Both the position numbers and the translations under genes were made by a program. From assembly GCF_031932625.1 (NCBI RefSeq), contig NZ_JAVSCK010000003.1, positions 356,856 through 388,855 on the forward strand: a DNA stretch of 32,000 nt, given 5' to 3'. Of the stretch, positions 23,024-26,050 are shown one piece after another (within the stretch, counting starts at the first letter, position 1; every line of letters starts with the position of its first letter). The notes under the pieces are model-generated. The model worked only from the letters and a program-made list of their open reading frames with translations, was not told the origin of the DNA and searched no databases. The DNA comes from Hwangdonia seohaensis. Lineage in GTDB: Bacteria; Bacteroidota; Bacteroidia; Flavobacteriales; Flavobacteriaceae.

Positions 23024-26000
23024 ATGAATTACGATACTCTAAAAATATCCATTCAACAGGCCGAAGATATACTCTTCAAACTATTTCATATCAAAGGAAA
23101 AGCTTCTGTGTTGCCCGGTGAGGTCGATTTTAATTTCAGAATAAAAGTTGCTAATTCAGAAGGCTATATTTTAAAAATATCACGCCCTAACGAGAATGAC
23201 AACTACCTCGATTTTCAACAAAAATTATTGCAATTTGTTCAAGATAATGGGCGAAATCTCATTACCCCAAAAGTTATATGCGATAATAAAGGCAAGGCCA
23301 TTTCTGAAATTACAGACGATTTTGGCAATAAGCGCAAAGTGCGACTTTTAAGTTGGGTTTCAGGCAGGGTTTGGAGTTCTGTCAATCCGCAATTAAACGA
23401 TTTACGCTTTAGTTTAGGCGAACAATGCGGGCGACTTACCAAAGCTTTACAAGGTTTTGAACATCCCGAAGCACATCGGGAATTTGAATGGGATGTGGCA
23501 CAATCACTTTGGACAAAAGCCCATGTAAATTTGTTTAAAAACGAAGAAAAAGCAATTGTTCAATATTTTCAAAATTCGTTTGAAAAACATGAAACGACCT
23601 ATTCAAAATTAAGAAAAGCTGTTGTTCATAATGACGCCAACGACAATAATGTTATTGTTTCTTCAGACTTGATACACCCCAAAGTTCAAGCCGCCATCGA
23701 TTATGGCGATGCCATACACACGCAAATAATTAACGATGTTACCATTGCCTGTGCTTACGCCATAATGCATCATAACGACCCGTTGGAAGCGGCTTTACCC
23801 ATTGTTAAAGGCTATCATTCAACATTTACTTTGCAAGAAAAGGAGTTGAGGCATTTGTATAATGCGATTGCCATGCGATTGGTGATTTCGGTAACAAAAT
23901 CCGCAATTAATAAGATTGAGGAGCCTGATAATGCCTACTTGTTAATTAGTGAAAAGCCGGCTTGGGAAGTCCTTGAAAAATGGCGAAACATAAGTGCGGA
24001 TTTTGCTTATTATAGTTTTAGAAATGCCTGTGGATGGGAGGCACATCCTAACGAAAATGAGTTTAAAAACTGGGTGTCAAAACAAAGTTTTAAGTTTACG
24101 GAATTGTTCCCTTCTATTGATAAAAATGAAGCGCTTCAATTAGATTTAAGTGTGTCCAGCAAATGGATTGGGCATCAAGAAGATTTTAATGATTTAGATG
24201 TGTTTCAGTTTAAAATCAATCAACTTCAAAAGAAAAATCCTCATAAAATTATTGCTGGTGGCTATTTGGAACCGCGACCGTTATACACGTCAAATAGCTA
24301 TGATAAAATAGGGAACTACGGTAAAGAAAGCCGAACAATTCATTTGGGTGTTGATTTTTGGCTTCCGGAACATACGGCTGTTCACGCCTTGTTTGATGGC
24401 GAAGTGGTTTTGGCTGTTAATGATTCGGGAGAAAAGGAATATGGCGGATTGGTCGTTTTAAAACACAAGACGCATCAATTGGAATTTTACACGCTATATG
24501 GGCATTTATCGGTGGCTAGTGCTACTAAAAACAAAGCAGGTGATATTATTAAAAAAGGTGAAAAAATTGGCGTATTGGGAAATGCGGAAGAAAACGGCAA
24601 TTGGGTGCCACACCTTCATTTTCAAGTGATGCTTTCACTTTTGGACTATAAAAACGATTTTCCGGGTGTTGCGTATTATAACCAAATAGAGGTTTGGAAA
24701 AGCATTTGTCCAGACCCAAATTTATTCTTCAAATCGGAAGCACTTCAAAATACTATTAAAAATTCAAACGAAGATTTAATCAATTACCGAAAACAACATT
24801 TAGGTAAAAGTTTAGGCCTTCAATATAAAGTGCCCATTAAAATGGTACGTGGTGCTGGTCAGTATTTAATGGATCAATTTGGACGTAAATATTTAGATAC
24901 GGTGAATAATGTGGCGCACGTGGGTCATGAAAAATACGAAGTTGTAAAAGCGGGGCAAGAACAAATGGCATTAATCAATACCAATTCACGCTATTTACAC
25001 GACAATATTAATGATTTAGCAAAAGAATTGATTGAGACTTTGCCAACAGAACTCAGTGTATTGCATTTTGTAAATTCTGGTAGTGAGGCCAACGAATTGG
25101 CCATTAGAATGGTTAAAGCCCATACCGGTGAGCGCGATATTATTGCTTCCGAAGTTGGTTATCACGGAAATACCAACATGTGTATCGATATTAGTTCGTA
25201 TAAGTTTGATGGAAAGGGCGGCAGCGGTGCACCGGAGCACACCCATATTTTCCCGTTGCCAGATGCCTTTAGAGGAAAATATCGAGGTGGAAACAGTGCT
25301 GAAAAATACGCTGAAGAGGTACAAAAGCAAATCGATATGGTTCATGAAAAAGGACGAGGTGTCGCTGCTTTTATTATTGAACCCATTATAAGTTGTGGCG
25401 GACAAATTGAATTGCCCAAAGGGTTTTTAGCTAAAACTTACAAGCTTGTTAGAGCAGCGGGCGGGCTATGTATTTCAGATGAGGTGCAAGTGGGCTGTGG
25501 CAGAATGGGTAAAACATTTTGGGGCTTTCAGCTGCACGATGTTGTTCCAGATATCGTCACTATTGGTAAACCTTTGGGTAACGGCCACCCCATTGCAGCG
25601 GTTGCATGTACACAAGACGTTGCCGATAAATTTGCCAACGGGATGGAGTACTTCAATACGTTTGGAGGAAATCCGGTGTCTTGCGCCATTGCTACCGAGG
25701 TTTTACGAACCGTAAAGCGAGAGAAATTACAGGAAAATGCTTTAAAAATTGGAACATATTTAAAAGATGAACTGAATATGTTAGCTCAAGAATTTCCCAT
25801 TATTGGCGATGTACGCGGACAAGGGTTGTTCTTGGGGATTGAGCTTGTTGATGCCAATATGAATCCTTTGGCAGCACAAACCGATTATTTAGCCAATAGA
25901 ATGAAAGACCACGGTATTTTAATGAGTACCGATGGTCCAGATCACAATGTGTTAAAAATAAAACCACCCATTGTATTTAATGAAGCGAATGCGGCAGAAC

Positions 26001-26050
26001 TGATTTTTTATTTAAGGAAAATATTTGCAGAAGATTTTATGCAATTTTAA
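23024..26050 (+). CDS. Three-domain fusion: APH-fold kinase (hydroxylysine-kinase-like), peptidase M23 domain, and class-III PLP enzyme of the AGXT2L/phospho-lyase subfamily
   Basis: It has no signal peptide. The kinase region (about aa 1-330) carries [16 protein letters not shown], the Brenner motif [13 protein letters not shown] and IDYGD. The M23 region (about aa 405-545) carries HLGVD...YGHL...PHLHFQV. The PLP region (about aa 585-1008) carries [91 protein letters not shown] and NVLKIKPP. The ATG directly abuts the GH63 stop (TAAATG). Confidence 0.85.

Follow-up and report, generated by a model that had tools for sequence, protein, structure and literature searches.

Within a window of 32,000 nucleotides from Hwangdonia seohaensis (the whole stretch of DNA that was analysed; assembly GCF_031932625.1, contig NZ_JAVSCK010000003.1, positions 356,856 to 388,855 of the forward strand), the gene at 23024-26050 on the plus strand encodes a single polypeptide of 1008 amino acids in which a kinase, an M23 metallopeptidase domain and a phospho-lyase-type domain dependent on pyridoxal phosphate (PLP) follow one another. 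We propose, with a probability of roughly 0.55, that this tri-domain enzyme performs the last committed steps in the catabolism of collagen-type 5-hydroxylysine and that its gene is the middle one of a SusC/SusD-linked operon for Glc-alpha1,2-Gal-beta-O-hydroxylysine, the M23 domain being included in the pathway as a peptidase. The substrate, the order of the reactions and, above all, the activity of the M23 domain are what we infer in this proposal. An earlier note on this DNA, made by a model from the letters alone, had suggested hydroxylysine from collagen as the substrate, and this idea is now strongly backed by three independent gene contexts, those of glycosidases, hydroxyproline and aminoadipate, which are also the reason why we read the locus as a Glc-Gal-hydroxylysine utilisation system.

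Collagen is the most abundant protein of animals, and its O-glycan is Glc-alpha1,2-Gal-beta-O- carried on the 5-hydroxyl of hydroxylysine. To our knowledge, the disposal of the two signature residues of collagen by bacteria is known for hydroxyproline only, the microbial fate of hydroxylysine and of its Glc-Gal being essentially undescribed. If the proposal is true, it would provide a complete route from import through deglucosylation, degalactosylation, peptide trimming and phosphorylation to elimination yielding aminoadipate semialdehyde, and it would assign a function to an NCBIfam family of "hypothetical protein" that occurs in hundreds of species or more. It would also suggest a natural substrate for YgjK-type GH63 enzymes, supply a genomic marker for feeding on collagen or animal detritus in marine Bacteroidota and anaerobes, and extend the M23 family beyond the lysis of cell walls and elastin.

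Domains of the tri-domain protein

The reading frame begins with ATG and contains no internal stop, and all three of its Pfam domains score well above their gathering scores, in the order APH (residues 29-254, E 5.8e-17), Peptidase_M23 (residues 439-536, E 4.2e-17, 62.6 bits against a cut-off of 28.7) and Aminotran_3 (residues 603-1000, E 2.4e-78). Translation and Pfam together bear out the description in the earlier note of one uninterrupted frame with three modules. The kinase, M23 and PLP motifs that it had called intact are all present where it had placed them: HNDANDNN at residue 202 and IDYGD at residue 225 in the kinase, HLGVD at residue 440 (nucleotide 24341) and HLH at residues 530-532 (nucleotide 24611) in the M23 domain, and the PLP lysine motif at residue 846, K849 being the PLP lysine. 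A gene-fusion artefact or a frameshift is ruled out, as the identical 1008-residue frame occurs in hundreds of genomes. The N-terminus is without a signal peptide, for which reason we take the protein to be cytoplasmic, and a lipoprotein-like N-terminus is seen in 0 of 76 tri-domain orthologues.

The kinase domain, of the APH/eukaryotic-like-kinase fold, takes up residues 1-355 (23024-24088; this and the following segments are all on the plus strand) and carries K51, H202-x-D204-x4-N209 and D226-x-x-D229. It is followed by a segment that leads up to and into the M23 core (residues 356-435, 24089-24328), ordered and conserved by the alignments and by a predicted local distance difference test (pLDDT) of about 88-95, in which E416 and R418 are invariant and Y421, like R437 just beyond it, is highly conserved. 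The M23 core itself (residues 436-540, 24329-24643) has the zinc ligands H440, D444 and H532 and the catalytic histidines H494 and H530, and a further segment (residues 541-600, 24644-24823), with a near-invariant CPDP at 563-566 and an invariant R589, separates it from the PLP-dependent phospho-lyase-type domain with K849 (residues 601-1008, 24824-26047). The earlier note had spoken of linkers of 50-70 residues. Stretches of about 55 (356-410) and about 40 residues (541-580) do exist, the kinase fold reaching approximately to residue 355 and the match to ETNPPL beginning near residue 581, but both are conserved and are predicted to be ordered rather than floppy. The AlphaFold check that the note had suggested gave, with AlphaFold2 and the full-length protein, a pLDDT of 93, a predicted template-modelling score (pTM) of 0.90 and no segment below 50, with values mostly of 79-97 in the inter-domain stretches. 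The order and conservation of these stretches suggest that the model represents one rigid body and not beads on a string.

At the N-terminus, D204, N209 and D226 do not vary in any of the 145 sequences (the query and 144 cluster representatives) that were aligned with MAFFT, the alignment in which conservation of the M23 domain was followed as well. The nearest solved folds to the AlphaFold2 model of this domain (pLDDT 92.8), as found with Foldseek, are homoserine kinase II (2ppq, 19% identity), the amicoumacin kinase AmiN and an aminopropanol kinase (6ef6), and the domain alone matches only two families, NF004799 and NF004800, both of which are fusion families. Homoserine kinase II as such was rejected: the model thrB_alt (TIGR00938) gives 42 bits against a cut-off of 255.9, about 214 bits short, which places the domain outside one of the two kinase clades that the earlier note had named as fatal to its reading. 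Judged by its motifs and fold, the N-terminal domain is an intact small-molecule kinase of the APH fold. The (S)-1-amino-2-propanol kinase 6ef6 of a mycobacterial microcompartment resembles it (template-modelling scores 0.68/0.74, 15% identity) in being an APH-fold kinase whose product, an amino-alcohol phosphate, goes to a class-III PLP lyase, and differs in that its system consists of separate proteins in a microcompartment, with no peptidase or glycosidases.

The C-terminal domain matches human ethanolamine-phosphate phospho-lyase, ETNPPL (EC 4.2.3.2; 6tor), with 439 bits (E 3.1e-130) and the Arthrobacter phospholyase A1RDF1 (5g4i) with 310 bits (E 3e-91), whereas no other class-III enzyme exceeds 170 bits (about 1e-49), the top one being annotated as a BioA-type aminotransferase. 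With a family profile the corresponding scores are 687 bits for 6tor and 490 for 5g4i against at most 282 for other class-III enzymes; this profile search of the PDB was dominated by class-III enzymes and added nothing on the kinase or the M23 domain. Foldseek superimposes the AlphaFold2 model of the domain on 6tor with 49% identity, a root-mean-square deviation (rmsd) of 1.3 A and a template-modelling score of 0.94, and K849 is kept in 141 of the 145 aligned sequences. By these scores the domain is a member of the AGXT2L/ETNPPL phospho-lyase clade and far from the transaminases, and an ordinary transaminase, which the earlier note had set out as an outcome that would count against it, is ruled out because such enzymes score about 270 bits below ETNPPL.

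It is well established that a kinase and a class-III phospholyase can work as a pair on amino alcohols, as they do both in human HYKK/PHYKPL and in the system of 6ef6. In vertebrates the APH-family hydroxylysine kinase (HYKK/AGPHD1, EC 2.7.1.81) puts a phosphate on an amino alcohol, and the class-III PLP enzyme 5-phosphohydroxy-L-lysine phospho-lyase (PHYKPL/AGXT2L2, EC 4.2.3.134) then removes it together with ammonia, much as we propose here; the vertebrate enzymes are separate proteins without an M23 domain, whereas the bacterial version is one polypeptide with M23 in between and with a substrate that we deduce from context. The closest solved structures, ETNPPL (6tor) and A1RDF1 (5g4i), lie at 49% and 38% identity and an rmsd of 1.3-1.9, and differ in being stand-alone enzymes that act on phosphoethanolamine, whereas the context described below points to phosphohydroxylysine. 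This gene context is compatible with 5-phosphohydroxylysine as the substrate of the lyase.

For the M23 domain the best PDB match is LytM (5e-8), EnvC and DipM being also among the matches, and in the alignment with LytM the residues H440, D444, H532, H494 and H530 correspond to H210, D214, H293, H260 and H291. The alignment also reveals, beyond the motifs of the earlier note, the third histidine of M23 catalysis, H494. All five catalytic residues are kept in 109 of the 145 aligned sequences, and among the 127 full-length representatives (at least 950 residues) the pentad is intact in 102 and degenerate in 25; about eight further clusters lack the domain and consist of kinase and lyase only, fused in some 785 residues. 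The ligands, whose lack of conservation across orthologues the earlier note had named as a refuting outcome, are conserved in most lineages (102 of 127) but not in the 25 degenerate ones or in the fusions from which the domain is absent. Where the zinc ligands are retained (115 sequences, 114 of them with H530 as well), both non-ligand catalytic histidines are nearly always retained too (109 of 115, 95%). Mean pairwise identity is 0.41 in the M23 core, 0.31 in the kinase and 0.51 in the lyase, and that of the core is 0.47 in the intact group and 0.26 in the degenerate one, with kinase and lyase unchanged. A catalytic domain lost now and then, with a structural remnant left behind, would be expected to show such a pattern, and on the conservation of these residues the domain is most likely an active zinc peptidase. 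It shares HxxxD, the catalytic histidine and HxH with the M23 enzymes of the lysostaphin/LytM type, which differ from it in being secreted cell-wall lysins, whereas the domain in the window lies inside a cytoplasmic enzyme with no signal peptide; it also has its own subfamily-specific residues, with E416, R418, N524, W527 and Q534 invariant and Y421 and R437 highly conserved. The closest clusters outside the flavobacterial group (P0123-P0125 and L089, 47-49% identity) have lost the M23 catalytic residues and kept the length of the segment, and one of them adjoins an SSF transporter with a DUF4212 small subunit.

The earlier note regarded the architecture as unusual, which was an overstatement, given an NCBIfam family with thousands of members. 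The window protein passes the model NF004799 (PRK06148, "hypothetical protein") with 1140.2 bits against a cut-off of 1128, the match running from residue 6 to 1004, or profile positions 9-1011 of 1015, and so covering all three domains; NF004800 (PRK06149) is matched below its cut-off (692 against 973 bits). The likeness to NF004799 is end to end, the family itself carrying no function. A search of 5.8 billion proteins returned 2341 matches at E <= 1e-10, the best 120 of which are all tri-domain proteins of about 1008 residues from Flavobacteriaceae and relatives at 76-95% identity, which puts the origin of the window in a flavobacterium near Wocania or Gelidibacter. An exhaustive HMMER scan of 50%-identity cluster representatives added some 130 further clusters of about 1000 residues at 34-62% identity. 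The order APH, M23, class-III PLP is common to all 240 homologues among the matches listed. By profile search the architecture is also present in Chloroflexi, Acidobacteria, Thermodesulfobacteriota, Nitrospirales, Saprospiraceae and Cyclobacteriaceae, and a genome scan with one genome per species yielded at least 598 confirmed loci. The architecture search that the note had recommended has accordingly been carried through to phyletic spread and gene contexts: the tri-domain family is real and widespread, with thousands of members in several phyla.

Veiga-da-Cunha and colleagues reportedly mentioned bacterial "bi- or tri-functional" proteins in the abstract of their J Biol Chem article of 2012. 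One review cites Veiga-da-Cunha et al. 2012 as an example of a gene fusion that revealed the function of enzymes, in agreement with the statement in the earlier note that bacterial fusions had led to the human enzymes, and a second review lists the same work as assisted by comparative genomics. The fusion has thus been both noticed and catalogued, as the reviews and the NCBIfam family indicate. In the searchable literature we found no paper with a characterised bacterial member or an explanation of the M23 domain, and no relevant paper on a bacterial hydroxylysine pathway, a utilisation locus for collagen glycans or a fusion of M23 with an aminotransferase. The picture at the level of the operon, in which bacteria would have a route for the O-glycosylated amino acid of collagen, seems not to have been described before.

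Gene context and the proposed pathway

In the window the tri-domain gene stands between two glycoside hydrolase (GH) genes, the evidence for an operon being gene spacing of 0-10 nucleotides. The upstream gene (21005-23023, plus strand) encodes a GH63-like, YgjK-like alpha-glucosidase (Pfam MGH1-like_GH, YgjK_N and GH63) with a lipoprotein signal peptide and the N-terminus MHLNKVVKYIGVLVLLVIFSC, and its stop codon is immediately followed by the start codon of the tri-domain gene. The product is homologous to E. coli YgjK (GH63; E 5.9e-78 against the PDB entry) and keeps both catalytic residues, D501 and E727 of YgjK corresponding to D450 and E643; 3w7w/3w7x are among its PDB matches. Because it misses the cut-off of the NCBIfam YgjK equivalog (374 bits against 625), we regard it as a relative of YgjK and not as an orthologue. 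Miyazaki and colleagues (FEBS J, 2013) are said to have found Glc-alpha1,2-Gal as the preferred product of a YgjK glycosynthase and to have considered such sugars likely natural substrates. The human enzyme PGGHG is an animal glucosidase that acts on the Glc-Gal-hydroxylysine of collagen and so performs the removal of glucose proposed here, the difference being that it is a member of another family, GH65. We found no bacterial Glc-Gal-hydroxylysine glucosidase described in the searchable literature.

The downstream gene (26061-29207, plus strand) encodes a GH2 beta-galactosidase of the LacZ type with Pfam GH2 domains and a lipoprotein signal peptide, which passes the NCBIfam model beta_gal_Bga2A (1011.7 against a cut-off of 999) and matches a beta-galactosidase in the PDB at 3.6e-233. 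Its likely start, ATG at 26061, is 10 nucleotides past the stop of the tri-domain gene. An alternative start, TTG at 26025, would create an overlap of 26 nucleotides, which is probably unreal, because ATG 26061 gives a clean lipoprotein signal and matches the starts of orthologues.

Two further genes, on the minus strand, would link these enzymes to uptake: a SusC-type TonB-dependent transporter (15748-18825; Pfam Plug, CarboxypepD_reg and TonB barrel), co-located in 10 loci, and a SusD-type surface binding protein (14211-15731; Pfam SusD_RagB and SusD-like_3), co-located in 9. With SusC/D, GH genes and a candidate regulator, the window has the composition by which SusC/SusD utilisation loci of Bacteroidota are recognised.

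Comparison with other genomes rests on a genome scan baited with the HLH motif, from which the 80 most similar loci were kept; counts out of 73 below refer to the informative loci. The core of GH63-like, tri-domain and GH2 genes, on the same strand and with gaps of 0-10 nucleotides, is found in the window and in 18 of the 73, the GH63-like gene standing at position -1 in 15 loci and the GH2 gene at position +1 in 15. These GH-flanked loci belong to Flavobacteriaceae, Weeksellaceae, Cyclobacteriaceae and Chitinophagales, the last two at 48-55% identity, and lipoprotein-like N-termini occur in 15 of 19 GH63-like and 13 of 19 GH2 orthologues. The core recurs, for example, in Wocania, Kaistella (Weeksellaceae) and Tenacibaculum, and the operons of the latter two add a LacI-type regulator, an aldose epimerase (mutarotase), an SSF transporter, galactokinase and galT, beside SusC/D. 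The SusC/D arrangement is seen in nine other loci (L001, L002, L003, L009, L018, L028, L031, L037 and L082). In L005, L013 and L017, from Polaribacter, Pseudotenacibaculum and other Flavobacteriaceae, two different GH2 genes flank the tri-domain gene and the GH63-like gene lies one step upstream; the second GH2 (about 1090 residues) may act on a different galactoside.

Hydroxyproline genes adjoin the tri-domain gene in 20 of the 73 loci. In a clustering of the neighbours of 85 loci the commonest of them is 4-hydroxyproline epimerase (18 loci; 580 bits, cut-off 376), followed by a DAO-type FAD oxidoreductase of the D-amino-acid dehydrogenase type (15 loci), an aldehyde dehydrogenase (11), a DHDPS-like deaminase (10) and a 1-pyrroline-2-carboxylate/1-piperideine-2-carboxylate (Pyr2C/Pip2C) reductase (10 loci; 376 bits against 322), and among the neighbours are also peptidases, namely an M24 prolidase (9 loci), an M20 dipeptidase (7) and an S37/S28 peptidase (5). 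After the two GHs, then, the recurrent neighbours are, by their family matches, the aerobic hydroxyproline pathway and imino-peptidases. Six loci, L005, L013, L017 and L020 among them, combine GH and hydroxyproline genes in one cluster. In Desulfosarcina alkanivorans, a sulfate reducer, the tri-domain gene comes straight after a cluster for anaerobic hydroxyproline breakdown (L085:1657-7943), which holds the glycyl-radical trans-4-hydroxyproline dehydratase HypD (1246 bits against a cut-off of 1100) and its activase together with genes for a GntR regulator and for members of the OCD and Pro-racemase families. This suggests that anaerobes, too, pair the catabolism of hydroxyproline and hydroxylysine. 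The association of two non-homologous hydroxyproline routes, in two phyla, with the same gene points to a shared source, a protein of the collagen type, and is hard to explain otherwise. Clusters of the hydroxyproline type also share genes for DUF4407 (13 loci), a YjdM/PhnA-domain protein (10 loci) and DUF885 (7 loci), the last perhaps another peptidase, and a DUF4440 (SnoaL-like) protein of 144 residues recurs downstream of the tri-domain gene, at +1 to +4, in 12 loci (for instance L047:12464-12898).

The third context comes from one locus, L004 of Maribacter, in which HglS and an aldehyde dehydrogenase immediately precede the tri-domain gene and an M20 dipeptidase follows it. The dehydrogenase passes the curated model for L-piperideine-6-carboxylate (2-aminoadipate-semialdehyde) dehydrogenase with 805.6 bits against a cut-off of 730, and its matches to antiquitin/ALDH7A1 and Pcd have E values of 1e-165 or below. 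5-Phosphohydroxylysine phospho-lyase is known to yield 2-aminoadipate semialdehyde, and HglS converts 2-oxoadipate to 2-hydroxyglutarate.

From these contexts we propose the following route. SusC/SusD would take up collagen-derived glycopeptides or free Glc-Gal-hydroxylysine, and in the periplasm the exported YgjK-like GH63 enzyme would strip off the alpha-1,2-glucose and the exported GH2 enzyme the beta-galactose, unmasking the 5-hydroxyl that the kinase requires. As the disaccharide occupies the very hydroxyl that is to be phosphorylated, deglycosylation would have to come first. After import, the N-terminal kinase would phosphorylate the freed 5-hydroxyl, and the PLP domain would eliminate phosphate and ammonia from 5-phosphohydroxylysine to give 2-aminoadipate semialdehyde, which would enter the aminoadipate route. 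The M23 domain would free hydroxylysine from the Gly-X-Hyl and Hyl-Gly peptides (Hyl, hydroxylysine) left by collagenases, much as the prolidase of the neighbouring gene sets does for hydroxyproline, and could in addition form a rigid bridge between kinase and lyase. By analogy, a hydroxylysyl-peptidase of this kind would fit the glycine preference of LytM and lysostaphin, as well as the dipeptidases that recur nearby. Only tentatively would we go further and suggest that the GH63-like/tri-domain/GH2 operon with SusC/SusD is the first bacterial Glc-Gal-hydroxylysine system to be described, and that its M23 domain is a cytoplasmic peptidase for hydroxylysyl peptides, the first M23 with a nutritional, non-lytic role, feeding a kinase-lyase channel in the same chain.

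Competing explanations

Several observations weigh against the hydroxylysine proposal. The bacterial C-terminal domain stands equally close to both vertebrate paralogues, ETNPPL and PHYKPL, and for this reason homology cannot separate phosphoethanolamine from phosphohydroxylysine. Neither a glycosidase nor a hydroxyproline context is present in 41 of the 73 informative loci, and in Chloroflexi, Acidobacteria and other lineages of soil and sediment the tri-domain gene mostly stands alone. The sample of loci is itself skewed towards Bacteroidota with an intact M23 domain, owing to the HLH bait and the choice of the most similar loci, and the neighbours, from 85 loci, were grouped by simple open reading frame calling and clustering with one representative annotated per cluster. 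The M23 domain is dispensable for the core chemistry, given the roughly eight clusters without it and the 25 full-length representatives without intact catalytic residues. Within the window no transporter for hydroxylysine or peptides was identified, and the searchable literature holds no biochemical data on any bacterial member.

In another explanation the kinase-lyase does act on hydroxylysine, but with an M23 domain that is not a peptidase at all, serving instead as a rigid bridge, an oligomerisation module or a zinc-dependent element that holds the substrate or regulates the enzyme. We consider this possible but doubtful. The single compact body of the AlphaFold2 model, with its ordered inter-domain segments (pTM 0.90), would suit a structural role, and the 25 full-length representatives keep the segment without intact catalytic residues, one of them, P0123, still having 991 residues, yet no longer an M23 domain that Pfam recognises; the degenerate LytM domains of EnvC, NlpD and DipM are a well-known non-catalytic precedent. 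A scaffold, however, would have no need of five catalytic residues, and 109 of the 115 sequences that keep the zinc ligands retain both non-ligand histidines. The core is moreover better conserved than the kinase, with a sharp drop only where the residues are lost, and the eight or so clusters without the domain show that kinase and lyase can be joined in its absence. A role of the M23 domain on cell-wall peptides, with the fusion coupling peptidoglycan turnover to an amino-alcohol pathway through cytoplasmic recycling of muropeptides, appears very improbable to us. All named relatives of the domain (LytM, lysostaphin, MepM, ShyA and DipM) are peptidoglycan hydrolases, but the matches to peptidoglycan hydrolases are far below the family cut-offs, ampG, ampD, ldcA, mpl and the like are absent among the recurrent neighbours, the protein is cytoplasmic, and no known amino-alcohol phosphate comes from muropeptides.

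The choice of substrate can be questioned as well. The kinase and lyase might work on another amino alcohol, on ethanolamine via phosphoethanolamine to acetaldehyde, on 1-amino-2-propanol or on a broad range of compounds, the collagen-related neighbours then reflecting a loose clustering of genes for nutrient scavenging. The closest solved relatives of the C-terminal domain, 6tor and 5g4i, are phosphoethanolamine lyases, the N-terminal domain has an aminopropanol kinase among its nearest folds, many loci have no collagen-related neighbours and the family is common in phyla of soil and sediment, all of which would agree with this explanation. We nevertheless think it unlikely, since genes of the eut type, for acetaldehyde dehydrogenase, for microcompartments or for aminoacetone metabolism were not seen beside the gene in about 90 loci. 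The recurrent neighbours are instead specific to constituents of collagen (removal of Glc-Gal, two hydroxyproline routes, prolidase), the aminoadipate-semialdehyde dehydrogenase and HglS are specific to the predicted product, and the tri-domain gene is packed between two GH genes with gaps of 0-10 nucleotides. Telling neighbours were not found at the loci from Chloroflexi, a contig of 1.65 Mb, a JGI metagenome contig and an ENA contig, nor at those of the two-domain P0231 and the degenerate P0123, and at the locus from Acidobacteria there was only a prolidase, two genes from the tri-domain gene.

Other genes of the window

Divergently from the operon, at 19089-20783 on the minus strand, lies a gene for a tetratricopeptide repeat (TPR) protein (Pfam TPR) with a C-terminal LuxR-type helix-turn-helix, residues 498-562 of which match that of the response regulator TtrR. 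Its product is a candidate regulator of the locus, and the gene is kept at the same place in L001 and L009. A scan of 20700-29600 for promoters and terminators stayed at chance (37 against 30 +/- 6 and 10 against 8 +/- 4) with a sigma-70 model that is unsuited to Bacteroidota. Downstream of SusD, a protein of 1119 residues with FG-GAP/ASPIC (CRTAC1-like) repeats (10780-14139, minus strand; nine Pfam FG-GAP_3 and UnbV_ASPIC) belongs to the SusC/SusD transporter unit and is beside SusC/D in L001 and L082 as well; it accompanies SusC/SusD even in a genome of the Chitinophagales, at 62% identity.

The two ends of the window hold other kinds of genes. From 35 to 10653 extends a heavy-metal efflux island of the copper/silver type, with an AcrB/CusA-type resistance-nodulation-division pump that is cut by the start of the window, a four-helix protein of the 23S-rRNA-intervening-sequence type, an outer-membrane factor, a P-type ATPase (HMA, HMBD), a PepSY_TM protein, a CusB-like adaptor (HMBD, DUF3347) and a small HMA protein. 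At 29500-31991 on the minus strand are genes for the utilisation of histidine, the imidazolonepropionase HutI (TIGR01224, 417 bits against a cut-off of 298) and a urocanase cut by the end of the window, both of them seemingly unrelated to the operon.

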